DNA from: Lama guanicoe
Lineage: Eukaryota
Direction: 5' to 3'
Assembly: GCA_013239625.1 (NCBI GenBank)
Contig: MU053588.1
Location: forward strand, 1,451,988-1,515,987
Length of the DNA stretch: 64,000 bases
Below, piece by piece: positions 6,317-64,000 of the stretch (within the stretch, counting starts at the first letter, position 1; every line of letters begins with the position of its first letter). The notes under the pieces are model-generated. The model saw only the letters and a program-made list of their open reading frames with translations, was not told the origin of the DNA and did no database searches. Made by a program: the position numbers and the translations under genes.

Positions 6317-6984
6317 ATCTATGATTGGCAGATATAGTGCTGCCAGTATTTCAAAAGGATTTAAAAATAACAAAAGAACTTTATACACCATATAAGTTGG
6401 GGTAGAGTTGGGCTCAGGGGACCACTTCATTTTTCACAGAGTAGGCAGAAACGTCAAACTCCAAACTTGTTTTGAGGTAGTTGACTTTCAGCTGTGAGTC
6501 CTGGTCCCAGTCTTGAAACCTCAGGAGGTTAAGTCCACCACCCGAGGAGGAGGGAATTCTCTCAGCCATAGGGACGAGGCTCCAGTCAGAGAGGAGGAGA
6601 AGGCTTCCCAGAAGGCAGCGATAAAGCCTGTTGAGCAGAAACAGAGGAGACAAGGGCAGAGGGGACTGGGGCTGAAACAGAAGGGCCTTGGGGGGAGGGG
6701 GAGGAGTCGTCTCCAGTTCCAGCATTTCCCTGTGCTCACCCGGGGGTCCCCACTCAGTGGAACAGGGGCTGCCTTAGAGAAACAGCAGCAGTTAAATCTG
6801 ATGGAGGAACTCTTCGAGTAGCTTCCAGAAACTGAAGACAGGGCCCAATAAGACCCTTGAATGGACTCAGGAGATCAAGATGCCAGGTAGCTACAAGCCC
6901 TTGATTAACGAACAAGATGTCCCAGCTAATGGTCGCAGCTCCTGGAAGGCACAGTCAGGTGGTTTTGCAAGGACAGTCCTTTGA

Positions 6985-7128
6985 CTAGGACAGAACGACC
7001 TGCACGATCACACTGGAGTTGGGCAGATAGATTCCATAATGTTTGGAACAGAACTCCATTTCACGGACCCAGTGTTCAAGAGACACAAAGCGGACGCCCT
7101 TCTTGAGGTTGGAGAACACATGGCTGAC
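6985..7128 (-). CDS. FBXO27-like: Copy 1 last coding exon (144 nt)
   Basis: cctacag| [47 protein letters not shown]. Confidence 0.93.
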   Translation of the reverse strand, partial: VSHVFSNLKKGVRFVSLEHWVREMEFCSKHYGIYLPNSSVIVQVVLS

Positions 7129-9590
7129 CTGTAGGCACAGAAAGAGGTAAGTCCCATTGTGCCATGGCCTTGTCCTCAAAAGCTGAGGTTGGGGCCTTCT
7201 GGCAGGTGGAATTTTCCACAGATGGCTGCAACAGCACCTCCAGTGCCCCCTGTACTTCTAGAATCAGACCACTCCTCATCCAGAGGTGGCGTCTAATCCC
7301 CACTCCCCTTGAATCTGGGCGGGTTTGCTTGTAACCAAGAGTGTGGTAGACATGATGCTGAGTAACTTTCACCTAGTGGCCTCCAAGGCTGGGTCAGAAA
7401 GGCAACGCAGCTTCTGCTGGTTTCTCATTCTGCTGGTCGGAACCCTCATGGGGGAGCCCTGAGCCCCCAGGAAGCAGTCTGACTGGCCTGAAGCTGCCAT
7501 GCTGTGAGGAAGCCCAAACTAGGCCACGGACAGAGGTCCCACAGCCAAGCTCTGAGACTAAACCAGGAGATGCTGGCCACCCACCAGCTGCTGTGTGCAC
7601 ACTGCACCCAGCCTGCCCCCAGCTCCAGCCAGTGTCTAAATGCAACTGTGTGAGAGTTAGAGCCAGAAGCTCCCAGCAGAGCCCCACTCAGAAACCAGGA
7701 GAGGTGATAGAATCACTGCCGTTTGTATTAAGCCACTAAACTTTAGGGCAAATTTTTTATGGAGAAATAAATTGATCATCGTAAGCCCCACATTCCTTTC
7801 CCCTCACCCCAGAGACTCACCTCAAGGAAGGAAGTGTGTCTCCTGTTCCGGATGGGGAAAAGCGTAGTAGAAAATTGATCCAGAATGGCCTGGTTGGCAT
7901 CTAGAAGTTGGATGGTTAGCCGATATATAGAGTTAATGTCTTGTTGGGCTGTCCACCTGTGGGAAAAGGGAGAACTTGAAGGCTGGACTTACCACCCATC
8001 TCTTTGGCTGGGCCTGCCTCCTCCACCTGGCTGGACTTCCCATGTGTGCAAATCCAAAATGTGGTCCCAGGGACTAGCACCATCTCTGTCACTTGGGGGC
8101 TTGGCTCACCTGCACTGATGAACTAGCAGTGCTCTTCAAGTTACTTCCCCCATAGGCTTGTCCAAAGGTATGGTCTTTGCCCTCTGCTTTGGGGAGGTAA
8201 TCTCTGGACCCTTTGAATATTATGCTGACAGGAGTATCTTTGTTTGCCTGGGGTCCTTGGGTCATATTGGATGGCCTGCCAATGTGATTTGGTGGCTGCT
8301 GGCCACACCCACATAGATGGTCTTACAATAGGGAACAGCCACCCACGGAACATAGGAGTTCCTAAGCAGCTCACACTTCAAAGCACTGGCTGTGTGCTTG
8401 ACATATAACCTTGTCTTATGAAGATAGGGTAACTGAGGCACATTGACTTGCCCCACAAAGCTGCAAAGCCAGGGTGCAAACCTGAGGGTCTGGCTCCAGA
8501 ATCTGAACTCTTACCCAACGATCCTATCTTGCCTCGTCCTGAAGTAAGAATCGTCTCATTCACAGACAAGTCTGAATTGAGCCCAAGTCCTCTGTGTTGG
8601 ACCCTGCCTGATATCTTCCAATCCAGTTCCCTCTGGGGGATAGGATAGGGGTTCAGGGAGGGCACTCTGCTAATTCCTAAAACTCTGATGGTGATTAAGT
8701 CATTTCCCGACCTGCTTTATCCTAAGGGATTGTGTTAGGAGGCCTGGATGGAGGAGTCACCTGTAAAAGAGCAGGGCTCAGCCCAGGGCTGTTTTTATCA
8801 TCACACTCACCAGTCAGAGAAACAAATCTCAATCTTGCCACTATCCAGGAGTTCAGGCCAGAAACCCTCCTCCTCCAGGTCCAACACTTGCTTCTTCTTA
8901 TGATACCACCTACAAAAGAGGGAGAAAGGTGAATGAGACTAGGCAAAGACTCACAACCAACCCGCTGGCCCTTGGGGGATAAAAGGTATTAACCTGTAGG
9001 GAGACCGGAAGCAGACCCGCAAAGGGGCCCTAGGCATAACCTCCCAGCTTTCCTCCATAGCCAGGTCGCCCAAATCCTGCACCATCATTGATTTCTGGAG
9101 GCTTCCTGTTAAAGAAAAATATTTGTCTCGGTTACTCGTCCTCCAGCTGCCCGCGGTCCCAGGGAGAAGTCCAGTGGTTTCCCGTGTGGTCCCGCCCCTC
9201 CAGCCCCTCCCACCGGCTCCCTTGAGGACGATCCCCTTTCCTGGGCTCCCCACCTTCTCTCTCACGTTTGCACAGCAGGTTGCGTCCTATGGGTCCGCGC
9301 GCGCAGAAGCGGCCCAGGAGGCAGGCACTGGCGGCGTCGGCGCGCGGCAGGCAGCTGCGGACGACCGGCCACAGGGCGCGGTGGTCCCGGGCCAGGATCT
9401 TCAGCCACAGGCCCGGGGCGTCCACCAGGGCGCGCCAGCGCCGGCACACCTGGCGGCAGCGGCCGAGCAGCGTGCGCGGGGGCAGGAGGCTCAGCACCGC
9501 CAGGAGCAGCTCCGGGGGCAGCTGGCTCAAATCCAGCACGTTCTCAGATTCCGTCTCCAGCGGGGGAACCCTGGAGGCCGAGGCGTCCAT
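6985..9590 (-). CDS. FBXO27-like: FBXO27-like F-box/FBA-domain protein, copy 1, intact, 275 aa; coding exons 9254-9590, 8994-9105, 8811-8909, 7821-7956, 6985-7128
   Basis: Manual splicing gives 337+112+99+136+144=828 nt in one open frame with GT-AG introns and ATG in gagaccATGG context. Motifs [58 protein letters not shown] and [22 protein letters not shown] match my recollection of FBXO27. Confidence 0.93.
7215..7780 (+). mobile_element. MaLR (MLT1-like) LTR in the last intron; paralogs at ~20535-21075 and ~31525-32060
   Basis: Motifs ccccttgaatctggg, gccatgctgtgaggaagccca and ttaagccactaaa..ggggcaatttgttatgcagcaata. Confidence 0.65.
7821..7956 (-). CDS. FBXO27-like: Copy 1 coding exon 4 (136 nt)
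   Basis: cccacag| [45 protein letters not shown] |gtgagt. Confidence 0.92.
8811..8909 (-). CDS. FBXO27-like: Copy 1 coding exon 3 (99 nt)
   Basis: ttttgtag| [33 protein letters not shown] |gtgagt; one codon longer than copies 2 and 3 (96 nt). Confidence 0.92.
8994..9105 (-). CDS. FBXO27-like: Copy 1 coding exon 2 (112 nt)
   Basis: ttaacag| ... TACAG|gttaat; [38 protein letters not shown]; same length in all three copies. Confidence 0.88.
9254..9590 (-). CDS. FBXO27-like: Copy 1 first coding exon (F-box domain)
   Basis: [10 protein letters not shown]...[11 protein letters not shown]; donor G|gtgggg; acceptor ctccagcag| 26 nt upstream of the ATG (exon starts at 9616). Confidence 0.92.
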
Positions 9591-16959: not shown

Positions 16960-18775
16960 GCAGGAGGAAGAACTCCTCTTCCATAAAACAATCACTCTTA
17001 AAGAGTTCACTTATAGACTTTTATTCCATGTATCTCTGTCTCATTATTTTTGAAAATATCATCATACCAACTTGATTTTCTTACTGACAAATTTCGTAGC
17101 AGAGATGACATGAATTTACTGACTTATAGTAAACCTAGGCGCCAAGTAAATGTATTATGTTTAATGCTGATGACTCTAAAGACAACTCCACACTAATCAA
17201 ACCAATAACTCAAAGTTGTTTCACTTACTGAAGATGAATCCTAGAGCACGTGATCCTTTAAAAATCTGAGTTAGTTTTGGGTAATGTTTAGAAAATATTT
17301 GATTTTTAAGTGGTTACTTTGAAGTCAATTACAGCTCTTTTACAAATGAAATTTTGATAATATTATCTGGATGTACAAATATATCATATTTATAATGTAC
17401 ACGCAGACAGACAGACATCCAGGTAGACACAACCACACTAATCAAACCAATATCTCATAGTTGTTTCACTTACTAAAGATGAATCCTAGAGCACGTGATC
17501 CTTTAAAACTCTGAGTTAGTTTTGGGTAATGTTTAGAAATATTTGATTTTTAAGTGGTTACTTTGAAGTCAATTAGAGCTCTTTTACAAATGAAATTTTG
17601 ATAATATTATCTGGACGTACAAACATATCATATTTATAATGTACACGCAGACAGACAGACATCCAGGTAGACACAGACAGAGACCTCATAGTTTTCCTGC
17701 TTGAGTTTTAAAAGGCCTTCCTCCTCCCTCTAACCCCTGCCCTTTATTTTTAATTCTTTTTTGGTATCAAGTTCTTCTAATTGAGCCAAGGCTGCAGCCT
17801 CTCAGGCAACATGGGCTGTGTCTGCCTTTCAAGGACGTGGAAAGGGTTATAACTTCAAGTTGTCTCCCAGGAGTCCTATTTCTCTTTTGAAAAGATGTTT
17901 TATCAAGCTGGCTTCTTTTAACTGTGCATGCAAAAATCAGTTTGGGAATGTCAAAAGCACTCCATCCTGGCCATTTGAGGGTTAGATTAAGTACTTGCAA
18001 GTATTGGCTCCACACCAAGTGAGAAACCATTAGTCCTCTTCACCTAGGAGATGTATCAGTACTCTCTCAAGTCTAGAAGTCTTAAGATCACCGTTCAAAT
18101 AAAAGTCATGGACCACCACCTAATACAAGGAGCTCTGAATATAAGGAAACACTCACTGAGACACCTAAATGGAGCTGTGAAGCCGAGCTGCTCAAGGGGC
18201 CCATGCCTGGTACCGAGGGCCAGTCCAAAGTAGACCTCAGGTGGGATTTTGTGTGATCAATGTCGATAGCAATGTCAATGAAAATAATGATTAAACAATC
18301 TCTTATAGGAATAGAAAAGAGTTTTATCTGAGGGAAACTGAGGATTACAATCCAAAAGACAGCCTCTCAGGTAAGCTGGAGGAAATGCTTCAGAGAAGCA
18401 TGGTTTTCAACATCATTTTCTATCTTGTCAGAACAAAGACCATCAAACAAGTCAGGGAAACATTCCTTTAAGGTTATAAAAACAAACACTTACCCAGTAA
18501 GTCAGTGTGGCCTTGGCTCCTGGGAAGGGAGTTCATGCAGGGAGGACCAGCACTGGCATCCCAGGAAGGGAGGCATTTCATCTTTATTCTTTACATGAAC
18601 ATTCCTTAACTGTGATCACTGCACCCTTTACTTTAATGATCAAAGCAGACGTACAACATATGTTTGATAGGCCACACACAGGCTGTTTTAGTTACATAAA
18701 ACTTGAGTTAAATCACGTATAAGCCAGAATGACTTCCCCATACCTGAGGATGTGAAAATTTCTTTCCAGGAAAGT
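16960..18775 (-). mobile_element. ERV internal leader region plus probable LTR (~18273-18770)
   Basis: Composition and motifs resemble an antisense ERV leader and LTR; no coding motif recognised. Confidence 0.4.
17188..17675. repeat. Direct tandem duplication, period ~245 nt, two copies
   Basis: ccacactaatcaaaccaata...ccaggtagacaca at 17188 and 17433, with few mismatches. Confidence 0.95.
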
Positions 18776-20130: not shown

Positions 20131-20191
20131 CAGGGCCCAGTAGGACCCTCAGTTGGACCCAGGGCCCAGTAGGACCCTCAGTTGGACCCAG
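20131..20191. repeat. 29-nt tandem duplication in the copy 2 3' UTR
   Basis: cagggcccagtaggaccctcagttggacc x2; single in copies 1 and 3. Confidence 0.95.
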
Positions 20192-20307
20192 GAGATCCCA
20201 GCATGCCAGGGAGCTACAAGCCCTTGATTAACAAATAGGATGTCCCAACCAATGGTCGCAGCTCCTGGAAGGCACAGTCAGGTGGTTTTGCAAGGACAGT
20301 CCTTTGA

Positions 20308-22284
20308 CTAGGACGGACGGACCTGCACGATCACACTGGAGTCGGGCAAATAGATTCCACAATGTTCAGAGTAGAGCTCCATATCCCAGATCCAGTGTTC
20401 AAGAGACACAAAGCGGACGCCCGTCTTGAGGTTGGAGAACACATGGCTGACCTGTAGGCAGAGAAAGAGGTAAGTCCCATTGTGCCATGGCCTTGTCCTC
20501 AAAAGGTGAGGCTGGGGCCTTCTGGCAGGAGGAATTTTCCACAAATGGCTGCGACAGCACCTCCAGTGCCCCCTGTACTTCTAGAATCAGACCACTCCTC
20601 ATCCAGACGTGGTATCTAATCACCTCCCACCTCCTTGAATCTGGGTGGATTTGCTTGTAACCAAGAGTGTGGTAGAGTGACTTTCTCCAAGTGACCTCCA
20701 AGGCTGGGTCAGAAAGGCAATGAAGCTTCTGCTGGTTTCTCCAGAACCCTCATGCGGGAGCCCTGAGCCCCTAGGAAGCAGTCTGACTGGCCTGAAGCCG
20801 CCATGCTGTGAGGAAGTCCAAACTAGACCACAGACAGGTCCCACGGCCAAGCTCTGAGACTAAACCAGGAGATGCTGGTCAATCACCAGCTGCTGTGTAC
20901 ACACTGCACCCACCCTGCCCCCAGCTCCAGCTAGTGTCTAAATGCAGCTATGTGAGAGTCCAGAGCAAGAAGCTCCCAGCTGAGCCCCACTCAGAAACCA
21001 GGAGAGGTGATAAAATCACTGCTGTTGATGTTAAGCCACTAAATTTGGGGGCAATTTGTTATGCAGCAATAGTTCATCATAGACTCCACTGACCTTCCCC
21101 CTCACCCTTGTCAGAGACTCACCTCAAAGATGACATTGTTTCTACACTGCCGGATGGAATAAGGTTTAGGAGAGAAATGGTCCAAGATGACGTGGTTGGC
21201 ATCAAGAATCTGGGCAATTAGCTGATAGACACAGTTCGTGCCTTGTTGGTCTGTCCACCTGTGGGAGAAGGGAGACCCTGGGGGCTGGGCTTGCTGCCAG
21301 TGCAGCTGCAATGTGCTTAAGTCATTTCTTGACCTCCTGCATCCTAAGGGGTTGTTAGGAGGCGTAAGTGAAGTCACTCAAGCAAAGGTCAGGGTTCAGC
21401 AAAAGGGCTGTTTTTATCACCCCACTCACCTGTGGGAGACGTAAATCTCCATCTTGCCACTATCCAGGAGTTCCGGCCAGAAACCCTCCTCCTCCAAGTC
21501 CAATACTTTCTTGTTGTAACAACACCTAGGAAAGGGGAAGAAAGGTCAATGAGAACAGGATAAGGACTCACAATGGCCCTGGCCCCTGGGAATAGGCCCA
21601 TTTACCTGTAGGCAGATAGGAGGTAGGTCAGATAAGGGAGTCCAGGAATGACCTGACAGTTTTCCTCCTCTGGCCAGTCGTCCCCATCGCTCAGCCTCAT
21701 CCATTTCTGGAAGCCATCTGTTAAGTTCAAAAAGTTTGTGCCCAAGTTCCAGGCCTGCCTACTGCTGCCACAGGGATGTCTCAGGGAGGTTCCCAGCGGC
21801 CCCGCCCCTCCGGCCCCGCCGGCCCCTCCGACTGGCTCCGGCGCAGCCACGCCCACCCACCAAATCCTTCCGGCCCCGCCCCTCGCCCCCTCTGGCGGGC
21901 TGGCTTGAGGGACTCCTTTCCTGGGCTCCACACCTTCACTCTCAGGTTTGCACAGCAGGTTGCGTCCGATGGGTCCGCGCGCGCAGAAGCGGCCCAGGAG
22001 GCAGGCACTGGCGGCGTCGGCGCGCGGCAGGCAGCTGCGGACGACCGGCCACAGGGCGCGGTGGTCCCGGGCCAGGATCTTCAGCCACAGGCCCGGGGCG
22101 TCCACCAGGGCGCGCCAGCGCCGGCACACCTGGCGGCAGCGGCCGAGCAGCGTGCGCGGGGGCAGGAGGCTCAGCACCGCCAGGAGCAGCTCCGGGGGCA
22201 GCTGGCTCAGGCCCAGTGCTTCCTTGGGCTCGGAAACCACGGGGGAACCCCGACCAGCCAGCCCCTGGAGGGTAAGACACCCAT
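20308..22284 (-). pseudogene. FBXO27-like: FBXO27-like copy 2, frameshifted as assembled (recent pseudogene or homopolymer error); exons 21934-22284, 21606-21717, 21430-21525, 21123-21258, 20308-20451
   Basis: The ATG at 22284 reads [25 protein letters not shown]. One extra base in the G5 run at 22241-22245 would restore a 279-aa frame. All other exons are open, with GT-AG sites. Confidence 0.8.
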
Positions 22285-23667: not shown

Positions 23668-25487
23668 GTCTGACTAATCTAATTCACATGGGCCACAGTG
23701 AGCGGTAGACGTGAAGTGTAAATTATGTGGTGTGTTGGAAGGGGATCAGCGCTGCTGGAAAGCAGAGCAGGGAAGGGAATGAGGGGTAAGCAGTCTGGGT
23801 GGGGAGACCCTGAATTCTGAGAGATGGAGTGACTATTACATGGGCTTAATTTTTTTTTCAATGCATGAATTTTCAAGAAAATGTTGACTATTGAGGTTTT
23901 CAAATGGATCCCAAAGTGGAACAAGGTAAGAGCACTGGCTCCAACAGTTCACTCCAGACCAATCTGCCTTCATCTCTACTCCCCCTACCTGACTTGGTCC
24001 TCCAGGCAATTTGAAGCAAATCTTAGAAATCATACCATTCTGTCCATAGCAGTACTTATTTTTTTTAATGTAATGTGTATACTGGAAGAATCTTTTTGAT
24101 AATAAGATTATGAAAATTGATTATGATCCAACTATGAGTTTAAAAAGTAGTTTTTTAAAAAGTTAAAAAACCTCAAGTAAGATACAAGTTCAGATACTGA
24201 CAAGTGAGTGTCTTGTCCCACTCTTGAATTTCCTCCTCGGATGTAGACTGCTGTTTCTTGGTAAAACCTGCCAGTCTGATTTGCAGGAGCAGAAAATTTC
24301 TGAGCCTCAGAGCACTGGGAGGCAGGATACACAAATAATTCCGAGGACATTAGAAGCTCCACCAACTTGGCTTCCCTGCCCTCGGTTCTCCTATCCTGTT
24401 AACAGGAGTGGGGAGGCAAGCTTCACGGTGTTTTCATTCCAGGAAAGGAACTGGACTGGCAATGGGCCCTGTGTGTAGAGGGAGGTTTGGAGGGAGCAGG
24501 TAACTAGTTAACACATCTCTTCTTTCAGAAGGGTGGGACAGATTTGAAAGAAGGCTAACTTCCTAGAGGTAGGATTTAGTCTGGACAGTCCTGGGTGTTG
24601 GTAATCTAGCTCCTTCCCCCAGGCAATTCAGCCCTGGCAGGCCCTTCTCTCCTTTGAGGGGGCGTGGCGTGTGGATATTGGTGGGGAGATGGAATTTCAG
24701 GTAAAACCCTCTCAGCTCCCCACCCAACCCAGCCTCTCGGGGGTCAAGAACAGGAAAGAGCCACAAACCCTCACAAAACTTCTTTGCCCTAAAAAAGGAA
24801 TTCCTCCTACTGAAGCTACACTTAGAAATAATCAAGACCTTAAGAAAAGTTCTGGCCAGAGGTAATTTTCTAGGTTAAACACAACAGCAACAGAAGAGGC
24901 TTTACAGATCAAAACACCAGCCTGTTCCAATGGAACACACACTTAGCAGGCTTTGAAAAGAAAGAGCTGAGAGGGACAAGTTGCTGGAAGGACCAAGGAG
25001 GGCCTGGAGGGACAGCAGTGAGTAGGGAAGGTCTGTACAAAGTGGAAGGTGAGGGGTAGGAGGGCCCTCCCTGGAGGGGGAGATGGCCCTGGAGGGTACT
25101 GAGGGGCTGCCTCCTTCCAGAGGAATCCACCATACCTAATGCCCTCAGGACTGTCTAGCCAGAATATCCAAAACAGCAGACCAGGTGAGCATCCCTACCA
25201 AGGGCTTCAGCCAGGGCTGTGGCATCTGGTGTACCACGCCCAGTAACATTACTGCATACCGCTGATGGCCCATTTTGTAATTAAAGTTCATCCCATACAG
25301 TCAAAAAGACATTAATAATTCCTAAGTGTGACAAAGATCTTTCAATTTCCTTTAATAAGGGGGAGACCTTATCTTTTAGAGATATAATTGAAGTATTTTT
25401 GGAGGAAATGATAGGCTGTCTGAGATTGCATTAGAATAATCCTTCGGAGGATGGATGGAGGTATAAATTTTAAAAAGGTTAACCACA

Positions 25488-28635: not shown

Positions 28636-30597
28636 AATAACAAGCGAATCCTCCTTTACAGGGTTTTAAAAAATTAGCCCTTGGAGAAGAGAGGCAAAGT
28701 CTACTTGGCCCTTGGCCTAGAATGTGGGGAGCGGGTTGGGAGAGCACCCTGGCTGCTGGTGGCCTGAATGGGGTGCATGGATAAAGGCACCTGTGCTACT
28801 CCCACCGTGCCTTTGGGTGCTATGGGCTGGAAGCAGCAGAGAGATGATAATTGATGTACAGACCCACCTCCTAGGCTCCAGCCTAAGGGATGGTGGCAGA
28901 CAGGTGACGATCCAGAACCCTGAACTTGTCCTGTGTCCAGCTGAGCGAGTGAAAGGCATCCCAAATCAGTATGCCAGCGCTCTTCTGGCAGCCAGCCCGT
29001 GGGAGCCATCAGCTTGCCAATCTACTCACCATGGGACCCCAGGATGACCCTATTAAGGCAAGAGTCCTAGAGTGCCTCTGGGCTTCCAGCCGACCCCATG
29101 CACCAGGGTTGGTGGTGGAGGTAAAGGCAGAGCCCCTTAATTGGGCAAGAAACAGGATGAGACTCACTTAGGTCCTGATCTAAAGTCGAGGTCCATGCCC
29201 AGAGAGCCCGCAGCCCTGGCTTAGAGAATTTCCAGGAAAGTGCTACATAGGGTGGGGACCCCTTCCTGGGTAAGGATTCTCTTGATGGGGTGGGAGAGAA
29301 ACAGAAAAGTCCTGGGGGACTCCAAGGTTTCTGGTCCAAGAACAGAATAGATTTTGCTACTTTTTACTGAGACAGGATGTATGGGGAAGAAGCTGGTGGG
29401 GAAGGGGTCAGAAAATCAAGACTCAATAGGAGGGAAACTGAGGCTCAGAAAGCCAAGTCCAAAGGCATAAAGTAAGGATGTGAACCTGTTTTGTCTCACA
29501 GCCTCCAGGCAACACCACCTACCCTGGCCCCAGGGGAGGTACCATTTTTAAGCATTTGATACACTAGGCCTGGTTCTGCACGTTTCATAAATGATTTTGT
29601 TTACTCTTCCCAACAATGGACACTCTGATCCTTTTTTAGGGGGAACAAGGGGAGACTCAGAGAGATCTTGCTCAAGGTCTCAGACTGAGGGGGTGGCAGG
29701 CATCAGTCACGTGTGTGCTCCCAAAACCATTTCTCCTCTTCCATCCTGGCTCAGGCTTTCCTGAGGCTTCCTCCTCCTGGAATCAGGGAGCCGAGGGTCT
29801 CATCTTTGCCATCCAAGGGCCCCAGGGCTAATTCCTACTATTTTATTTGCATTGTTCAGACCCAGCTAGCCCCAGCTCTCACCTGGTGGCCAGCTAGGAG
29901 GTGTCAGAAGTGGGGACAAAATCTTCCTGGGTCCTGCTTCCATTGCCCCACGTAGGGGGCAGAGCAGGTAGGCGTGGGGCACCCAGGACTGGCCAGACAT
30001 GTGGGACCTGCTACCCTAGCTGTCTCAGGAGGCTGTTACCTGGAGAAGGCAGGGTCTTCTGGGGCTGGGACAGCTGTGAGCAGCAGGAGGCCTCTGTGTC
30101 TGCAAACTCGAATACTGGGGTTGCACTGGTAGCAGGATGCTCGTTTGCCCAGTTGGCACCCCAGCAAGTGAGCTGGAGACCAGGAGGGAGCCCCCAGTCC
30201 CAGCTCCTGGCCCCCTAACTGACCAGTCCAGGCCTAGTTATGCCCTGGCAGGCAGGTCCTCGGGGAGCAGGAGAAACACCAGAAAGTCACAATGTGGTGT
30301 CACTGTGACACTATACCCACATCTGTCATCCGCCTAATGCTTTTAAACCTGATTGATAATCTTTGCAAGGATGCTTTCCTTAGGCCTTGGGAAATAGGGG
30401 TCTAACTCTTCCATTCCTTCTACTGGAGAAGACCTTGCACTGTTGTTTTCCTCTGTAGAGTTTTCCTTCCGCAACTGAGACACTCCTTGCTCTGAACCCA
30501 ATAGTCAGGGAAGACAGCACCACTGTGTTTGGATTTAAAAGATCTGAGGGAAAACAAAAAACAAAGAGATCTGAGACACTTTTGGTAAAATAATACA

Positions 30598-31291: not shown

Positions 31292-34200
31292 CTAGGACAG
31301 AACGACCTGCACGATCACACTGGAGTTGGGCAGATAAATTCCGCATTGCTCAGGCTGAAAGGCGAAGTCCTAGATCCAGTGTTCAAGAGACACAAAGCGG
31401 ACACCCGTCTTGAGGTTGGAGAACACATGGCTGACCTGTAGGCAGAGAAAGAGGTAAGTCCCATTGTGCCATGGTCTTGCTCTCAAAAGCTGAGGTTGGG
31501 GCCTTCTGGCAGGAGGAATTTCCCACAGACGGCTGTGACAGCACCTCCAGTGCCCCCTGTTCTTCTAGAATCAGACCACTCCTCATCCAGAGGTGGCGTC
31601 TAATCCCCACTCCCCTTGAATCTGGGCGGGTTTGCTTGTAACCAAGAGTGTGGTAGAGTGACTTTCACCAAGTGACCTCCAAGGCTGGGTCAGAAAGGCA
31701 ACGCAGCTTCTGCTGGTTTCTCCAGAACCCTCATGGGGGAGCCCTGAGCCCCTGGGAAGCAGTCTGACTGGCCTGAAGCCGCCATGCTGTGAGGAAGCCC
31801 AAACTAGACCACGGACAGAGGTCCCACGGCCAAGCTCTGAGACTAAACCAGGAGATGCTGGTCAATCACCAGCTGCTGTGTACACACTGCACCCACCCTG
31901 CCCCCAGCTCCAGCCAGTCTCTGTATGCAACTATGTGAGAGACCAGAGTGAGAAGCTCCCAGCAGAGCCCCACTCAAACCAGGAGAGGTGATAGAATCAC
32001 TGCTGTTGGTATTAAGCCACTAAATTTGGGGGGCAATTTGTTATGCAGCAATAGTTCATCATAGGCTCCAACGACCTTCCCCCTCACTCCTGTCAGAAAC
32101 TCACCTCAAAGATGACACTGTTTCTATGCTGCTGAATGGGAAAAGACACAGGAGCGAAGTGGTCCAGGACGGCCCTGTTGGCATCTAGAAGCTGGACGGT
32201 TAGTTGATACATACAGTCAGTGCCTTGTCGGTCTGTCCACCTGTGAGAGAAGGGAAACCCTGAAGATGGACTTCCACCTCCATTTATTTCTTTGGGTGTC
32301 AAATGGCTTCCCTATGGATGCAAACCAATATGTGGTCCCTGGGACTAGCACCAGTGTCACCTGGGAGCCTGACCCCACTGCACACCCAATGAATCCATCT
32401 GCACAAAACCAGCTCCCCAGCTGGCCTGCCTGCACAACTGCTTCAGAAGTGATGACCTAGAGCAGAGCTCTTCACAGCACCTCCTCCCCGTGTTATTTCT
32501 TATCCATGTTTCACTGGTGGCAAATGATGTACAATGTGTACAACAATGATATCTGAGATACAATTTTCTTATCAGTCCTTTAAAAGGATCCAGGGGAATC
32601 CAAATCGATGATGGGATACCCAGCAACATTCAAAGAAACAACATCCAATGACCGTCAATGGTAAATGGGTAAATTATGGCATATTCACATAATGGAACAT
32701 TATACAGCCATGACAGTAAAGTAACTGCAGCTACATGCAATTATGGGTGAACTTACATGCTATTGAGAGAAGCCAGATACAAACTATATACTGTATGGCT
32801 CCATATATGTTAAGTATAAAAATGCACAAAATTCATCTACTGTAACAGAATTCAGAATTGTGCTACACTTGGGTTGGTAGTGATGGGGAAAGGGGCATGA
32901 GGGATGCTGAGGGTGGGGTTTTCTGGCATTTTCTGTCATTGATGGGGGGGCTAGTATGGTGAATGTCTTCACTTTATAATAATTCATTCAGTTGCACTCC
33001 CAAGAAATGTTCATCTTTGATGTTAGAAATTAAAAATTTAAGAGTAATGAGCTGTATAAATTCACAAACATGTATCTACTTTACAGACACTTCACATCAC
33101 TCCACTTCTCAGCGTCTATTTTAATTCTCCACAGAATTTTGTTCTCATGTTAATATATTTTCATGTTCTTCGGATTTACCTTTCACACTATTTGGTGGCA
33201 ACCACATACAAAGAATATACATTAAAAATTTTAAATTTTCTGTGACCATAAAGCTCTCAATGTTAACACTTTTTCTTTTGGACTGAATTATTAGCTACTT
33301 GTAATTTACAGACACTGCCCCAGATTGGAGTCATCTGGAATCTTGAAGATACTTTGTAGAAAAGAATTTAGCCTGGTCCAAATGTATGGCCTTTGCCCTC
33401 TGCTTCTTTGGAATATTATGCTGACAGGAATGTCTGTTTGCCTGGGGACCTTGGGTCATACTGGATGGCCTGCCAATGTGGTTTGGTAGCAATTGGCTGC
33501 ATCCACATGGGTAGTCTTATAACGGACGCCAGCCCCCCAGGAGGACTAACAAGATGACATGGGATGCATCACACAGTGTCAGTTGACTGGAGGCTGAGCT
33601 GAGAAACATGAGAAAGCCCCAATAAAGGCTCAGGTGAGCTTCCCTGGTGGCAGTATCCCATGCACATGTCACACATGATGCCAGGACAGTCTTGTGTCCC
33701 GACTCCAAGGGCAGAAGAGAGCAATGGAAGTCTGGCATTGGATTCTTCCCTTGGATGCTATCTGGTGACCTTCCCCTTGGCTGATTTTCATCTTTATCTT
33801 TTCCCTGTAATAAACTAAATTATGTATACTAGTTTTCAGTGAGTGCTATGTCTTTCTAGTCAATTACTGAGCCTGAGGGTGGTTGTAGGAACCCCCTACA
33901 CTGGCCACTGAAAGGCGGTCTTGGGATTGTGCCCTCTAACTTTGTAGTTGGCTATAAAATTCTGAGAGATGTTGATGCCTGGCTCCCTCACCCCAGATAC
34001 TTTGATTTAATGGGTATGCAGTGGGACCTAGGCATCGGGAGCTTTATACAGTCCTGGGCGATGTCTGGCAATATTTGGGAGTCACTGATTATTACCATGA
34101 AATGGTACATCATTGCTCAAAGTAACACAAACATGCTACAATAGTTTGATAAAAGATTAAATTACAAAGAGAAGTTGATTGCAAATTCATCTGCTAATGA

Positions 34201-35314
34201 TAGGGAAAACTGAGACACATTGACTGACCCAAGGCCACAAAGCTGCAAAGCCAGAGTGTGAACCTGGGAGGTCTGGCTCCAGAATCTGAACTCTTACCCA
34301 ACCATCTGGAATTGTCCCCTCTTAAAGCAAGGAGCATCTCATCCACAGACAAGTCTAAGTTGGGCCCAAGTCCTCTGTATTGGACCTCACCTGACATCTT
34401 CCAATGCAGTTCCCTCTGGGGGCTAGGAGAGGGGTTCAGGGAGTGCACTCTGCTAATTCCTAAAGCTCTGATGGTGGTTAAGTCATTTCCTGACCTGCTA
34501 TATCCTAAGGGGTTGTTGTTAGAAGGCCTGAAGGAAGTCACCCATGAAAAGTCAGCACTCAGCAAAAGGGCTGTTTTTATCATCACACTCACCAGTGAGA
34601 GACACAAATCTCAACCTTGCCACTATCCAGGAGTTCCGGCCACAGACCCTCCTCCTCCAGGTCCAACACTTTCTTGTTGTGACAACACCTAGGAAAGAGG
34701 GAGAAAGGTGATGAGAACAGGTAAGGACTCACAACCGCCCTGGTCCCTGGGGAATAGATGCATTTACCTGTAGGTAGATGGGAAGCTGGTCTGGGAAGGC
34801 GCCCCACGCAGGACCTCATAGTTTTCCTCCTCTGCCCAGCCATCCCCACCGGTCAGCATCGTCCACATCTGGAAGGCATCTGTTAAAAAGGTTTGTGCCC
34901 AAGTTCCTTTCTGCCCACCAGCCCAGGAATAAGTTCCAGGGGATTCCGGCGCAGCCCTGCCTCTCTGCATCCTCCCACCGGCTCCCTTGAGGACGATCTG
35001 CTTCCTGGGTTCCCCACCTGTGCCCTTAGGGTTCTGAAAGAGATTGCGTCCTATGGGTCCGCGCGCGGCAGGCAGCTGCGGACGACCGGCCACAGGGCGC
35101 GGTGGTCCCGGGCCAGGATCTTCAGCCACAGGCCCGGGGCGTCCACCAGGGCGCGCCAGCGCCGGCACACCTGGCGGCAGCGGCCGAGCAGCGTGCGCGG
35201 GGGCAGGAGGCTCAGCACCGCCAGGAGCAGCTCCGGGGGCAGCTGGCTCAGGCCCAGCGCCTCCTCCGGTTCGGGCTGCGGCGCCGGCCTGCCCCTGGAG
35301 GCAGAGGCACGTAT
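31292..35314 (-). pseudogene. FBXO27-like: FBXO27-like copy 3, unprocessed pseudogene; exons 35018-35314, 34768-34879, 34593-34688, 32105-32240, 31292-31435
   Basis: The start codon position reads ATA (35312-35314). A 43-nt frameshifting deletion lies at 35060/35061. An in-frame TAG at 31370-31372 replaces copy 2's TGG. Splice sites are retained. Confidence 0.9.
33350..33950 (+). mobile_element. MER21-like LTR in a copy 3 intron; partial paralog at ~8140-8370
   Basis: Motifs ggcctttgccctctgc..gtttgcctgggg..cttgggtcata; aataaa near 33808. Family name is from recall. Confidence 0.5.
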
Positions 35315-38060: not shown

Positions 38061-39749
38061 AAAAACTTCAAGTAGAATAAAAGGGCAGATACTGACAAGT
38101 GAGTGTCCTTTCCTGTTCTTCAATTTCCTCCTCTGAGATGATCTCTCTTAATTCCTGGAATTATTCCCCATGCTGTAATCTGATTAAAAGGAAAAACATA
38201 TAATTGAGTTCCAAAAGAGCTTACTGCCTGGAAGAAAAGGATTAGAGAATAATGGTTTCCAGGAGAGGAGGGTGTACAAAGCAACCCAGGGGCCTTTGGG
38301 GAAAGTTATGGGTGCATTTTGGTGTCACAGTAATGGGATGCTATTGGGAAGCTGTGCTCAGGACAGGGCCACGTGGGGGAGAATGGTCCTGGATTCCTCC
38401 TCCTAGTGAAAGTTCTGTATGTTTCCATGTAGGAGGAAAGCCTGTGAATCTGAGCCTAGAACCCAATTCCAGCTTGCATGTAAATGTAAAGTGTGTTAAT
38501 AAACACTGATGCCAGGAATGCTGCTACTGGGTCAATTGGAAGATTGTTCTTGGCTTTGTTGGCACTTTATTGCTTGTGCTGCAAGTGAGAAAAACCACAG
38601 GATCTCTTCATCACGGTGGTGCCCACTGTGGGTCTTATGAAGCTTTAGGGATCCATAGAGAGGTCCCAACATCTTGGGGCTCTATCAGATGCCCAGGGTA
38701 GATTTGAAAATCCGAACTCTGAATCAGGTCTGCATTTGTAACAAATTCACAAGGGATGTTGATGTCTGCACTTTGTGGACCACACTTTGAGTCACGGAAT
38801 CTTATTGGGATCAAGCCCAAGCATCATTTGCATATTCCAATATGTATTCTTTTAATAGTAAATTTCTCTCCTTCTATTTCACCTTTACACTATTGGGGGC
38901 ATTTTTAGAAATGTCTGTGGAGGTAGGTTTTATTAAGTGTTTTATTTCAAGATGGTAAATGCTACGTGAGAAATTATTAGTTATAATGGGGGGAGGGGGA
39001 GGTTGGCTCTGACAGAATGAAGCAATAGTGATGGCCAGATGAGGGTAGGGACGCAGGGGAATCTCCCCACTGCAGGTGTGGTTGGGAAGTTGGGGGGAAA
39101 CCCTGCATACCTGATTTGCAGAAGTAGAAAATTCCTGAACTTCAGAGCACTGGGAGGCAGGCTGCATGAATATCCCAAGGACATTAGAAGCTCCACCAAC
39201 TTGGCTTCCCTGCCCCTGGTTCTATCCTGTTAGCAAGAGTTGGGTGGCAAACTGGGAGGTATTTTGATTCCACTGAATGAACTGGATTAGAAAATGGCCC
39301 TTTGTATGGAGGGAGGGTCCGAGGGATCCTAGGAAGGAGGAGGTAAGTAGTTAACAAAATCTCCTCTCTCAGAGGGTGGGAGGGATTAGGAAAGAGACCA
39401 CGCCCCTGAAAGTAGTATTGAGTCAGGCCAGCCCTGGGTGTCAGTAATCAAGCTCCTTTCTCAAGGTGATTCAGCCCTAGAATGCCCATCTCTCCTGGAG
39501 GGGGCAGGATTTGGGTTTGGAGACGGCATTTCAGGTAAAACCCTCTCAGCTCCCACCCAACAACCCAGCCTCTGGGTTGGGGGTCAAGAGCAGAAAAGAG
39601 CCATAAATCCCACAAACTTCTTTGCCCTAAAGAAGGAATTCCTCCTACTGAAGCCAGACTTAGAAATAACCAAGGCCTTTAGAAACATTCTGGCAGAGGT
39701 CATTTTCTAGGTTAAACACAACAACAAAATAAGAGGCTTTAAAGATAAA

Positions 39750-40125
39750 AAAGACACAGAAAGACAAATACTGTAAGATATCACTACACCTGGAGCCTAA
39801 AAAAATACAACAAACTAGTGAATATAACAAAAAAGAAACAGACTCACAGATGTAGAGAAGGAACTAGTGGTTACCAGTGGGGAGAGGGAAGGGGGAGGGG
39901 CAAGTTGGAGGTGGAGGATTAAGAGGTACAAACTATCAGGTGTAAAATAAGCTACAAGGATGTGCTGTACAACATGGGGAATAGAGCCAATATTTTATAA
40001 CAACTATAAATGGAGTATAACCTTTAAAATTGTTTACTATATTGTATACCTGTAACATATAATCTTGTACATCAATTATACTTCAATTTAAGAAATATGA
40101 TGTTGTAAAATAAATATATTTTTTT
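39750..40125 (+). mobile_element. L1 3' UTR fragment
   Basis: gactcacagatgtagagaaggaactagtggttaccag...; interrupts sequence paralogous to ~1354-1370. Confidence 0.85.
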
Positions 40126-42289: not shown

Positions 42290-42780
42290 GAAAAACCCAG
42301 ATGTTTCTTTCCTATGTAGGGAAAACCCCAGTTCTTCCTGCTGAGTTTCTCCCCATGTGTCTCCTTTACTTCTCACACAGAACACTTCACTTGTGACACT
42401 CTGGTCCCCAACTGTGTGGAGGTCCCCCCACCCCCCCATAAACGATTCTCTGTGACACCAGCAGGAAGTCCAAAAGTCTTACAATTTAACTCAGTTCTGA
42501 CACTATCTACCATAAGATAGTTCAGATCCCACAGTTTAAGGGCTCAGTCCCACAAGACTGCCCCCTCCCCATCAGATGCCAGTCTCAGGCCCTGGTTATC
42601 GCCTGCGCTTCTGACCAACTGGCTATGGGTCTACAGATGAGACGTTCCAAAGACCCCTTCCTGGAGTTCAATTAATTTGAAAGGGTGGCTCACAGAACTC
42701 AGGGAAACACCTTTATCAGTTTATTAAAGGATATGACAAAAGATACAGACAAACAGCCAGATGAAGAGATACACAGGGTG
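42290..42780. mobile_element. LTR-like element; related copy at ~44130-44830
   Basis: Both share tgtagggaaaa.cccagttcttcc and acaatttaactca.ttctgac.ct.tctacc..agatag..cagatcccaca. Confidence 0.55.
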
Positions 42781-45700
42781 GGGCCCCCTCCCTGGATAAG
42801 GATGCTCCTGATGGGGCGGGAGAGAAACAGAGAAGTCCTGGGGGACTCCAAGGTTTCTGGCCCAAGATGAGATTTCGCTGCTTTTTACTGAGACAGGATG
42901 TATGGGGAAGAAGCTGGTGGGGAAGGGGTCAGAAAATCAAGACTCAATAGAAGGGAAACCGAGGCTCAGAAAGTCAAGTTCAAAGGCATAGAATAAGAAT
43001 GTGAACCTGTTTTGTCTCGTTGCCTCCAGGCAACACCACCTACCCTGGCCCCAGGGGAGGTACCATTTTCAAGCATTTGATACACCAGGCCTGGTGCTGT
43101 ACTTTTCATAAATGATCTCATTTACTCTTCCCGACAATGGACACTCTGATCCTTTTTTAGGGGGAACAAGGGGAGACTCAGAGAGATCTTGCTCAAGGTC
43201 TCAGACTGAGGGGGTGGCAGGCATCAGTCACGTGTGTGCTCCCAAAACCATTTCTCCTCTTCCATCCTGGCTCAGGCTTTCCTGAGGCTTGCTCCTCCCA
43301 GAATCAGGGAGCAGAGGGATCCCATCTTTGCCACCCAGTGACCTAGGACTAATTTCTGCTGTATTATTTGCATTACTCAGACCCAGCTGGCCCCAGCCGC
43401 ATGCTGTCCAGGTGCCGCCAGCCCTGCAGGGGCCCCTTGCAGAGGCCTGGGGGAGAGGCACTGAAAGGCAGGTGCCACTTGGCTGGGCCACCCATAAACT
43501 TCCACTGTGACCCATCCACCCCTACAGGAGGCATGGTCCCCATGGTGCCGGCCATTCACCATGGACTGTGCCTCAGGCCTGCCAGGCGCCCAGGCCAAGT
43601 GTCCCATTCTTTATTCTTCCTCACCCGCATCCAGCCTCTCAGCAAACCTTGCCAGCTCCAACTTCATAAAATCTATCCAGAACTCGCTTCTTTCTGTCCC
43701 CACCACGGCTGCCTCCCTGGTCCTGTCCACTTTCGTCTCCTGTCTGGACTACAGTCTCCCTGTCCACTCACAGTGCCACCCGCCTCAGAGTAAAGGTCAA
43801 AGGCCTCACTGCGGCCCATGATCTATCAGATCACGTCTCTGACCCCATGGCCTCTCCCACTTGTCCCCTTGCTCAGCCCATTCCAGCCACTCAGGCCTCC
43901 TTGCTATTCTGTGACCCCTGAGGCTCCACCTCAGGGCCTTTGCACTGGCTGTTCCCTCCTGGTGGAACACCCTTCCCTAGATGTCCCCATGGCTCCCTCC
44001 CATCCCTCCTTTAGCTCTTTGCTCAAATGTCACCTTCTTGTCCACACCTCCCCTGATCACCATGTGTAATATTACTACTCTGACCTTTCCATGCCCCATA
44101 CCCTGTTCTGTTTTTCTGGGAAACCTTCCTGAAAAGGAAAAACTCATTTTTCCACCTTCCTGTGTAGGGAAAAACCCAGTTCTTCCCCATCGTGTGGGTC
44201 TTTATCCTGTGAGTCTCCTTTATGATCTACACACTTTTCTTCTAGGCATTGAACATGTGGAGGGTTTTCCCCATGCCACGCGATTCTCTGAGACATTAGC
44301 TAGGTGCCCTACAATTTAACTCAATTCTGACGCTGTCTACCCAGAGATAGTGTCAGATCCCACAAGTTCAGTGCTCAGTCCCACCAGACTGCCCCCCTCC
44401 CCACGTACACTGACCCTTGAGACATCAGCTGCAAACCAAGTTATCACCTGTGCTTCTGACCACCTGGTTATAGAGTGGAGGTTCCAAAGACACCCTCCTT
44501 GGGTTCAATTAAGTTGCCAGAGCAGCTCACAGAACTCAGGGAAACTCCTACTAATGTTCACCAGTTTATTAAATGATACAATAAAGGATACAGATAAATA
44601 TCCAGGTGGAAGAGATGCACAGGACAAGGTATGTGGGAAGGGGAGGGCGGAGCTTCCATGCCCTCTCCAGCCACATCCCACTCCCAGCATCTCCACCTGT
44701 TCCCCAACTCGGAAGCTCTCCGAACACCACACTATTGGAGTTTTATGGCAGCTTCCTCAAGTAGGCATGATCAATTGTTAACTCCATTTCCAGCCCCTCT
44801 CTCCTTGCTGGAGGACTGGGAGTGAGGATGTCCCATCTCCCCGCCACCACTGACACAATAGCAAACACTTGTGTCTCCAACCCTAGTACAACCCTGACCT
44901 TGTTACCTCCACCCAGACTCCCAGCCTATCATCCCTGTCTTCTCCTCTCTACATCTCTGGGCCAGTTTCCCACCCTGGACAAAACAGTCTCTCTGGAAAT
45001 TGTCACTTATTTCCTCCCAAAACAGCATTTCCCAAAGAGTAAAACATACTGGAGATTTTAGGTGGACACAAAATGAACCTTTATCATATAAACAGCTCCA
45101 TATTGTCTTTGAAAATATATTAAGTGGTATTGGTTTTCCCTTTGTAGTAGTGATATAAAGATATCTTTTAAATTAAATTAAATCTAAAAAAGATTAATGA
45201 AAAACTGTTAAGCAAATAGTAGTTCAAGTAGTCCTCAAACATGACTAAAAATCTCAGATTGTACACGAGCCACCGAGGTTGGGGGAACTTGGTCTTAGAG
45301 GAACCCAGGTGATGGTTTCGCCCCAGGTGATGGCCCCCAGTTTGTGTGGCTTGGCCTTGAGAATCTCCCTTCTATCTTGGATCTTCTCTTCATATGCATG
45401 AGTGTCCAGCACCTAGCTGGCCAAGGGGAAAGTTGATGGTTATCACCAAGCAGCCTATATCTCTCTGTTAGAAGCCTTCAAAGAGATTACATTGACAATG
45501 ATTCAAAGCAAGCAGAGAACTTTAGGAAACCTCTGCTGAGGTAGCACAGACCATGCCCACACTCCTATTTCTTAATGTTCCTGGATGAGCAGGGGCAGGG
45601 CTGTGCTCTGTTGGGTTATGCTGTGGAAGGGGAGAAACCTGGGTTCAAAACCAGGTTTCACCACGTACAAGCCATGTGATGGAGACAAGCTACCTAATTT

Positions 45701-62954: not shown

Positions 62955-63229
62955 GAATTTTCTGGGGAAATATCCAAGGGTATTTTGTGACAAATCACTC
63001 GCAACCTTCAAACAGCTCACAAAGGTTTACAGGCAAAATTCTCGTTTGCTCCCACCTAGACCCGAGGGCAATTTCTGGAGTTCATGCATTAATAATAATA
63101 AAAAGAGCAGCTGATTCTTATTCGGTCCTTACTCTGGGCCAGGCCATGTTCTCAGCATGAAATTTCATGTGTCAACTGGTTTTACCCTCATAATAACCCA
63201 TAGTGTAACGTACTATTATCACCCTCATT

Positions 63230-64000
63230 TCGCAAGGGAAGAAACCGAGGCCCAGCGAGGTCGAGTAACCGGCCTGGGGCAACCGCTGAGAAGCAGCGCT
63301 GCGGTTGGGTGGACTATGATTTTCTCTTCACAGCAAGCCCGGGGGCCTGGCGAGGAACCAGTGTGGGCTAAGATTGCAAAGAGAGGAAGGCGCAAAGAAT
63401 TGCAAGGACTACGAAGCTGCGGCTGCGGGAAGGGATGCGGGAAGGGATGGGGGAAGCCCCCCGGTCGCAGGCTCTGGTGCCTCCACACCTGGGTACCTCG
63501 GGATCCGACAGCCCCAGAAGTGGGGGCCAGTGTCCGTGCCCTGGGGGCTTCGCAGCCACGGGTGGGGCTCCTGGGGGACAGGCGCAGCCTTACCTGTCCC
63601 GGCGCTCACCTGGTGGCCGACTTGGAGGTGGCGGCGGAGGCGTAGCAAGCCTTCCTGGGTCCCCTACCCTCGCCCCGCCCTGGGGGGTGGGCGGGTGCGC
63701 GTGAGGCGCTCAGGACCGGCCGGACCTGTGGGACCCGGGGCCCCGGGTGTCTGGGGAGGCCGTCAAATGGAGAAGGAAGGCTCTTCCGGGGCTGGGACAA
63801 CTGTGGGCGGCGGGATACCTCGGCGCTTGCAAACATAAATACCGCCGTAGTAGTGGTGGCAGGAGACGCGTGCGGGCAGCTGGCGCCCGCGAGGGTGAGC
63901 CGGGGACAGGGACGCAACCCCCAGCCCCAGCTCCTGGCCCCCGGATGGACGGTCCTGGCTTGGCTCTGCCCAGGCAGGCAGGTCCTCTGGAAGCTGGAGA
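63230..64000. promoter_or_regulatory. CpG island, probable promoter/first exon of the neighbouring gene (possibly ACP7 by recalled human synteny; not shown by sequence)
   Basis: About 33 CpGs in 63601-64000, GC boxes (ccccgccc, gggcggg), TATA-like cataaata at 63834, donor-like GAGG|gtgagc at ~63895. Confidence 0.7.

Follow-up and report, generated by a model that had tools for sequence, protein, structure and literature searches.

FBXO27 (Fbs3) was described, in the accessible part of one report, as a myristoylated, glycan-binding protein that marks ruptured lysosomes (PMC6389600). Phe177, Tyr279, and Trp280 were reported to be essential to N-glycan binding in the available portion of a structural study (PMC4603797). 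A divergence peak maintained under gene conversion was described for exon 5 in the genes encoding red and green opsins (PMC3924837, available in part). In cattle, a member of the family considered here was needed for normal blastocyst rates (11.4% versus 36.3% in controls), according to the part of the article at hand (PMC11313146). No account of the evolution of this FBXO27-like array was found in a literature search, the coverage of which did not extend to subscription papers.

The window analysed is a stretch of 64,000 nt of guanaco DNA. Self-comparison located three tandem copies of one gene on its minus strand, with flank segments of further copies at the window edges. The proteins of the array are FBXO27-like, and their top matches are Camelus and Vicugna models with 86-100% identity over the F-box exon. 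Exons are numbered 2-6 following the human numbering. Copy 1 (6985..9590, minus strand) is intact and encodes 275 aa in coding exons 9590-9254, 9105-8994, 8909-8811, 7956-7821, and 7128-6985; towards the C-terminus it corresponds to alpaca model P0005, and the two have the same sequence from the F-box on. Copy 2 (20308..22284, minus strand) has an ATG at 22284 that is out of frame with the F-box, and the same appears to hold for its first coding exon (21934-22284) in Camelus models. The copy 2 binding domain is near-identical to that of camels, with 1/36, 0/31, 1/45, and 0/11 residues differing in exons 3, 4, 5, and the loop, respectively. A sequencing slip was considered as the source of the copy 2 frameshift and rejected, since Camelus models carry the same ATG-less frame; the reading frame suggests upstream or non-AUG initiation, or a product without the F-box. 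Copy 3 (31292..35310, minus strand) is a pseudogene: the usual start position reads ATA, the F-box exon has lost 43 nt by deletion, and a stop codon lies inside the patch described below. Gene-less flank segments of the repeat unit were found at 1-1937, 24260-25487, and 38410-39751 (upstream) and at 29238-30274, 42764-43397, and 63598-64000 (downstream), and thus sit at both window ends. The array probably extends leftwards beyond the window, and the 37-43 kb region is probably a gene-less remnant. A CpG-rich stretch begins near 63000, a local tandem duplication of ~250 nt with 96% identity lies at 17180-17675, and the 3' UTR of copy 2 has a 29-nt tandem duplication (~20147-20204) that is missing in copies 1 and 3. 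Matches to the DUX motif were not enriched near the promoters, with 10 one-mismatch matches versus 10.7 expected and no perfect match.

The last exons of copies 1, 2, and 3 (6985-7128, 20308-20451, and 31292-31435, minus strand) are 144 nt each and contain a 33-nt patch, located on the minus strand at 7036..7068 in copy 1, 20359..20391 in copy 2 (IWDMELYSEHC), and 31343..31375 in copy 3 (I*DFAFQPEQC, interrupted by an in-frame stop and reading IWDFAFWPEQC in Camelus). The loop translations agree with those given in a preliminary description of this DNA, and an exact recount reproduced its headline observation that copies 1 and 3 differ at 20/33 nt in the patch versus 3/111 elsewhere in the exon, a count obtained for a pair in which one member is a pseudogene. 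The corresponding values are 10/33 versus 6/111 for copies 1 and 2 and 14/33 versus 7/111 for copies 2 and 3 (Fisher P of 5e-13 for the headline pair, then 3e-4 and 3e-6; the patch was chosen by eye beforehand and the P values are uncorrected for that). The patch flanks (intron and exon) differ by 7.1%, 5.4%, and 6.3% for the pairs 1-2, 1-3, and 2-3, versus 23.8% (354/1487), 20.3% (399/1966), and 21.2% (277/1305) in the unconverted non-coding background (P<1e-30). Around the copy 1 patch, the homogenised tract covers most of the last intron, the exon flanks, and the proximal 3' UTR (6885..7720, minus strand, approximate ends; 5-7% between copies). A second conversion tract is the F-box core (9292..9530 in copy 1, minus strand; G+C 78-79%), where copies diverge by 0.4-1%. 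Because the flanks and the F-box core are unusually alike, the patch/flank contrast is mainly due to conversion. The earlier proposal that conversion homogenised the flanks and left the loop out is supported by these values and by the trees described below. Within the converted intron, the copies still differ by an 11-nt indel.

The patch was also compared with the unconverted background, a comparison proposed at the outset, and the outcome was mixed with respect to diversifying selection. For copies 1 and 2, whose loops are intact, the patch is at background level (P=0.24; 10/33 is attained in 32% of 1391 overlapping background windows), which argues against such selection. Both comparisons with copy 3 lie above background, in its favour: the 1-3 patch is far over it (P=5e-7; none of 1838 windows reaches 20 and the maximum is 17), and the 2-3 patch exceeds it at P=0.005 (0.7% of 1209 windows). 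Removing the two copy 3 codons that differ from Camelus left both above background, with 14/27 (P 3e-4) and 11/27 (P 0.017) for copies 1-3 and 2-3, respectively. In the loop, pS exceeds pN in all three pairs (0.43, 0.92, and 0.84 versus 0.28, 0.49, and 0.34 for 1-2, 1-3, and 2-3, each with just 5-6 silent sites), and the 1-3 differences are distributed over the codon positions as 6/4/10, the pattern of a constrained sequence. Ten of 11 third positions differ between the copy 3 and copy 1 loops, which is above what background age predicts; the silent excess in the copy 3 comparisons is not fully explained by the reading proposed here.

Divergence between copies is not confined to the patch. Exon 3 and parts of exon 5 are equally different. 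Exon 5 of copy 1 (7821..7956, minus strand; b5-b6 and b7-b8 loops) is unconverted, with copies 22-29% divergent. Exon 3 of copy 1 (8994..9105, minus strand; b1-b4 region) is likewise unconverted and has the strongest replacement excess, with the trend of the loop reversed (pN of 0.37, 0.38, and 0.27 versus pS of 0.24, 0.33, and 0.20) and with pN over background in two of three pairs (P 0.005, 1e-4, and 0.15). pN>pS was significant in none of the nine segment-pair tests. Differences at second positions outnumber those at third positions across the three exons 3 (8994-9105, 21606-21717, and 34768-34879; 14 versus 9, 18 versus 10, and 14 versus 6). Nothing else in the gene hints as strongly at positive selection in the past as this position bias, and a burst of such selection, if there was any, would be better shown by exon 3 than by the patch.

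Exon residues 1-43 align to residues 254-296 of mouse Fbs1 (2e31) at equal length, and the other FBXO2 chain alignments shown are also ungapped. The patch corresponds to Fbs1 274-284, and from this gap-free alignment codons 26/27 are equivalent to Tyr279/Trp280. Together with the fold matches, this confirms the assignment of the patch to the Fbs1/FBXO2 loop that carries these residues. The aromatic pair itself is absent, being replaced by Phe-Cys, Leu-Tyr, and Phe-Gln in copies 1, 2, and 3, so that Cys, Tyr, and Gln stand at the Trp280 position; the equivalent of Phe177, in exon 3, is an aromatic Tyr in all three copies. The label "glycan-binding" given to the loop at first is thus doubtful, and because the essential Trp is missing from copies 1 and 2 it can be kept as an ancestral label only. 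The predicted fold of P0005 (104 sequences, pLDDT 81.3) places the patch at the end of strand b9 and in the b9-b10 loop, where the pLDDT blocks are at 74; an earlier fold with 49 sequences was poor (pLDDT 52.8) and was set aside. Residues were assigned to the fold from the alignment and the secondary structure rather than by superposing it onto the glycan complex. Fbs1, FBG3, and Fbs2 account for the ten best fold matches, with E values between 9e-15 and 4e-8. The C-terminal part carries the FBA beta-sandwich (PF04300), with low confidence in the exon-3 part of the fold model (pLDDT<50). The N-terminal F-box is covered by PF00646/PF12937, precomputed on the near-identical P0001 and P0005, and by helices 38-81 in the fold model; Skp1 docking and SCF formation are putative functions suggested by this intact F-box. 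N-myristoylation requires an N-terminal Gly2. This residue is missing from all three copies, as copy 1 starts MDASASR, the MGV of copy 2 is out of frame, and copy 3 has ATA at the start.

The loops were compared with those of other camelids. Between the guanaco window and Camelus, 0/11 residues differ in the loop of copy 1 (3/3 models) and 0/11 in that of copy 2 (4/4 models), and a third loop type, present in dromedary and alpaca and located outside the window, also shows 0/11 differences. One of 11 loop residues differs from Camelus in a degenerate copy, and 2/11 differ in pseudogene copy 3 (two Camelus models with the loop; two more are without it). For the three conserved loops, no changes were seen versus ~3.4 expected over 33 codons under neutrality (P=0.03, from a rough expectation); the nucleotide test of the loop alone, using an RNA-library contig of the copy 1 counterpart, gave P=0.22. 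The loop is thus not turning over in the working copies, and the term "hypervariable" in its ongoing sense does not fit. That contig (1019 nt, RNA library X16, from a related animal) covers 6406-7130 and runs on into copy 1 exon 5, i.e. across a spliced last junction. Its 29 differences comprise 26 in the 3' UTR and three clustered at 7096, 7099, and 7100, with none in the loop. Two of these three carry copy 3 letters, and the resulting Thr-Gly codons resemble copy 3; a micro-conversion that took place after the split, at a distance of 28 nt from the loop, is suggested by this. Since the Thr is common to Camelus proteins, the contig probably comes from an Old World camel. A similar contig without the exon-5 end was found in a second study (X15). 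Reads were compared for the last exon region of copy 1 in four runs; the contigs give neither expression level nor strand, and retrocopy DNA can mimic splicing in them. One contig of DNA run X6 has a copy-2-like exon 5 joined straight to exon 6 at window position 7130, suggesting a processed retrocopy and hence germ-line expression of a copy-2-like gene. Models P0074/P0113 are degenerate copies that may represent a processed retrocopy. The same loops and flanks recur in alpaca and in three Camelus species, all assembled independently. Relative to the window and to other species, models P0003, P0005, P0009, P0312, and P0114 combine the body of one type with an N-terminus or last exon belonging to another, as in alpaca P0003, where exons 3-5 of one type are followed by the last exon of another; such mixed models either reflect crossing over within the homogenised tracts or are errors of assembly or annotation.

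The family was found in camelids, pigs, hippos, whales, and ruminants, and these lineages have loop types in common; copies outside the window are known from public protein models. About five loop types were distinguished by eye, among them IWDLEFRNEQY, which is identical in whale and ruminant models. In a tree of the F-box from 51 selected models, sequences group by lineage (6 label changes, minimum 5) and all eight camelid rows are identical. In a tree of exon 5 plus loop (48 rows, with three gappy rows omitted), the lineages are mixed (13 label changes). Both trees are built on 56-85 columns and have 21 open forks, i.e. half are unresolved. Exon-5 identity predicts loop identity across 684 cross-lineage pairs (r=0.48, 0/2000 permutations); identity in the F-box is no such predictor (r=0.17, 169/2000 permutations). 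Homogenised last-exon flanks are specific to camelids (paralog identity 0.94 versus 0.63-0.80 in other lineages), which is why the patch looks so sharp there. Paralog variation covers exon 3, b5-b6, b7-b8, b9-b10, and the start of b10, corresponding to the loops that shape the Fbs1 pocket (PMC4603797), although errors in the gene models inflate the entropy of exon 3. Within the loop, paralogs vary most at the Trp280 equivalent. Ruminant types in the clusters of P0151, P0161, P0154, and P0121 lie on contigs of several lengths within a single species (Moschus, Cervus, and Capra), which suggests many dispersed copies or retrocopies.

The canonical b9-b10 motif, G-x-D/E-T-x-x-W-A-G, is kept from distant homologs up to the non-artiodactyl mammals, where it was present in 38/38 models with the last-exon block (51 picked). 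It was present in 0/123 artiodactyl models with this block (132 retrieved, from variant-based queries, one of them covering 120 of 228 matches; the retrieval as a whole yielded no bat sequence either). Eight canonical clusters had no artiodactyl in the part of their membership that was listed (for the largest, 15 of 85), and none occurred among seven further canonical-loop representatives. The Camelus and Physeter models named 'F-box only protein 27' carry variant loops. A loss of canonical FBXO27 in artiodactyls is put forward from these models as a lead and not as a result. An artiodactyl-wide replacement of this deeply conserved lectin loop appears to be undescribed in the literature. Elsewhere, two strepsirrhine primate models (P0056 and P0157) have an altered FBXO27 loop in common (GEETRFWAGDY), and Octodon has two FBXO27-like models. 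Models P0315, P0317, P0319, and P0323 contain several FBA domains each, with b9-b10 loops differing from repeat to repeat, and may result from the fusion, at the model level, of comparable tandem arrays in other animals.

The patch is best read as an old, copy-specific, substrate-binding b9-b10 loop that was left unconverted within exchanged DNA, with selection likely removing the events that overwrite it; a probability of roughly 0.6 is given to this reading. FBXO27 would have duplicated to about five types before the artiodactyl lineages split, as the shared types suggest. The tip loops would have changed early, probably under selection, with the loss seen here of the canonical G-x-D-T-x-F-W-A-G-H-Y. 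Gene conversion, which the homogenised sequences record, would then have acted on the F-box in most lineages and in camelids also on the last intron and the exon flanks, and the loop of each working copy would since have been held constant, as observed between camel and the guanaco window, presumably by selection. Each protein would likely dock Skp1 and bring its own, probably non-chitobiose, substrate to the SCF for ubiquitination, possibly in the germ line or early embryo. Having lost the ancestral sugar-binding signature, each copy likely picks its own targets. Several points count against this reading. The homogenised last-exon flanks are confined to camelids, and their tract seems to predate the camel split (5-7% versus 4.5%). 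The P0003 fusion indicates that the loop may at times be overwritten, unless it is an annotation or assembly error.

The main rival to a selection-protected loop is a neutral island, in which the loop drifted after glycan binding was lost and the mismatch then blocked conversion tracts mechanically, without selection for copy-specific loops. Copy 3 bears on this directly: it is broken here and the Camelus models look broken too, yet it keeps its own distinct loop, and function is therefore not required for the island to persist. The background-level patch of copies 1 and 2, the excess of pS in every loop pair, and the persistence of the intronic indel also fit passive blocking. Drift would, however, be expected neither to leave three loops without a single residue change between camelid genera, against two in the pseudogene, nor to keep an identical loop in whales and ruminants, nor to make the loop type follow the exon-5 type across lineages, and this rival is considered unlikely. 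The preliminary description had instead raised diversifying selection on the ligand pocket, which as an ongoing arms race with a pathogen or a fast-changing ligand is regarded as improbable. The excess of the copy 3 patches over background (also without its two deviating codons), the variability at the Trp280 position, and the exon-3 replacements in two of three pairs support a past burst. Against a current process stand the unchanged loops of the working copies across genera, the lack of a significant pN>pS in any segment-pair test, the higher pS in 3/3 loop pairs, and the constrained codon-position pattern. An assembly artefact, in which the similarity of the flanks would stem from the collapsing or polishing of repeats, is very improbable; near-identical tracts are hard to assemble and public models have N- and C-terminal halves swapped between assemblies, but the flanks differ by 5-7% even so, the loops and flanks recur in the independent camel and alpaca assemblies, and the RNA-library contig agrees.

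A broader extension of the selection-protected reading is possible but doubtful: artiodactyls may have lost the glycan-sensing FBXO27, with the locus now providing an array of some five SCF receptors whose specificities are new and fixed and which clear early-embryo proteins, where the converted F-box and last intron would serve as constant joints and crossovers would shuffle the tip-loop exons into new combinations. If the loss holds, livestock and whales may be unable to mark damaged lysosomes by the known FBXO27 route and may carry several uncharacterised ubiquitin-ligase receptors instead. The conversion map indicates the residues likely to set specificity. As an evolutionary mechanism, the locus neatly adds one more case to a process already known from the opsins and is not a new one.

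Compared with human and mouse FBXO27/Fbs3, the artiodactyl copies share an F-box plus FBA domain with ~60% identity and cluster together next to canonical FBXO27, whichever of the two trees is used; they differ in lacking the canonical loop motif, with the Trp280 equivalent gone in copies 1 and 2, Gly2 absent from copy 1, and the camelid locus being a multi-copy array. FBXO44/FBG3, which does not bind sugar, has the same fold, and its binding is set by loops b2-b3, b5-b6, b7-b8, and b9-b10; unlike the camelid copies, in which the residues are replaced, FBG3 retains Tyr-Trp and has lost the pocket through loop geometry (PMC4603797, available in part). Conversion between tandem FBA-family genes that covers the F-box was also described for Fbxo6/Fbxo44 in primates, but that case involves two genes at another locus, with no loop island reported in the accessible part of the article and FBXO27 unmentioned in its main text (PMC3984280). 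The cattle gene belongs to the same family as the camelid array, as far as the available material goes: translation of guide 1 (PMC11313146, supplementary file 1) gives the end of the exon in Bos models P0250/P0251. As to whether the guides might cut all paralogs, the guide 1 peptide occurs in four Bos models of one type and in one unrelated long protein, and the guide 2 peptide is common to many models. The loop of the cattle gene (VEGYDSWPEQC) keeps the Trp and is of a type without a counterpart in the window, and the array, loops, and conversion are not discussed in the accessible part of that article; an embryo role of the camelid copies would be a family-level extrapolation from cattle. 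In ruminant CEACAM32, conversion in introns and leader, and not in ligand-binding exons, was attributed to selection, but whole exons escape there and the cell-surface family is unrelated (PMC7042247, from the portion available). In the opsins, divergence peaks narrowly at functional sites, the introns on either side are converted, and orthologs are closer than paralogs inside the peak (as described in the accessible part of PMC3924837). The camelid locus likewise has a narrow peak, at putatively functional sites, flanks homogenised far below the duplicate age and, within the island, orthologs closer than paralogs; it differs from the opsins in having an island of 33 nt within one exon, about five types, and an older duplication.
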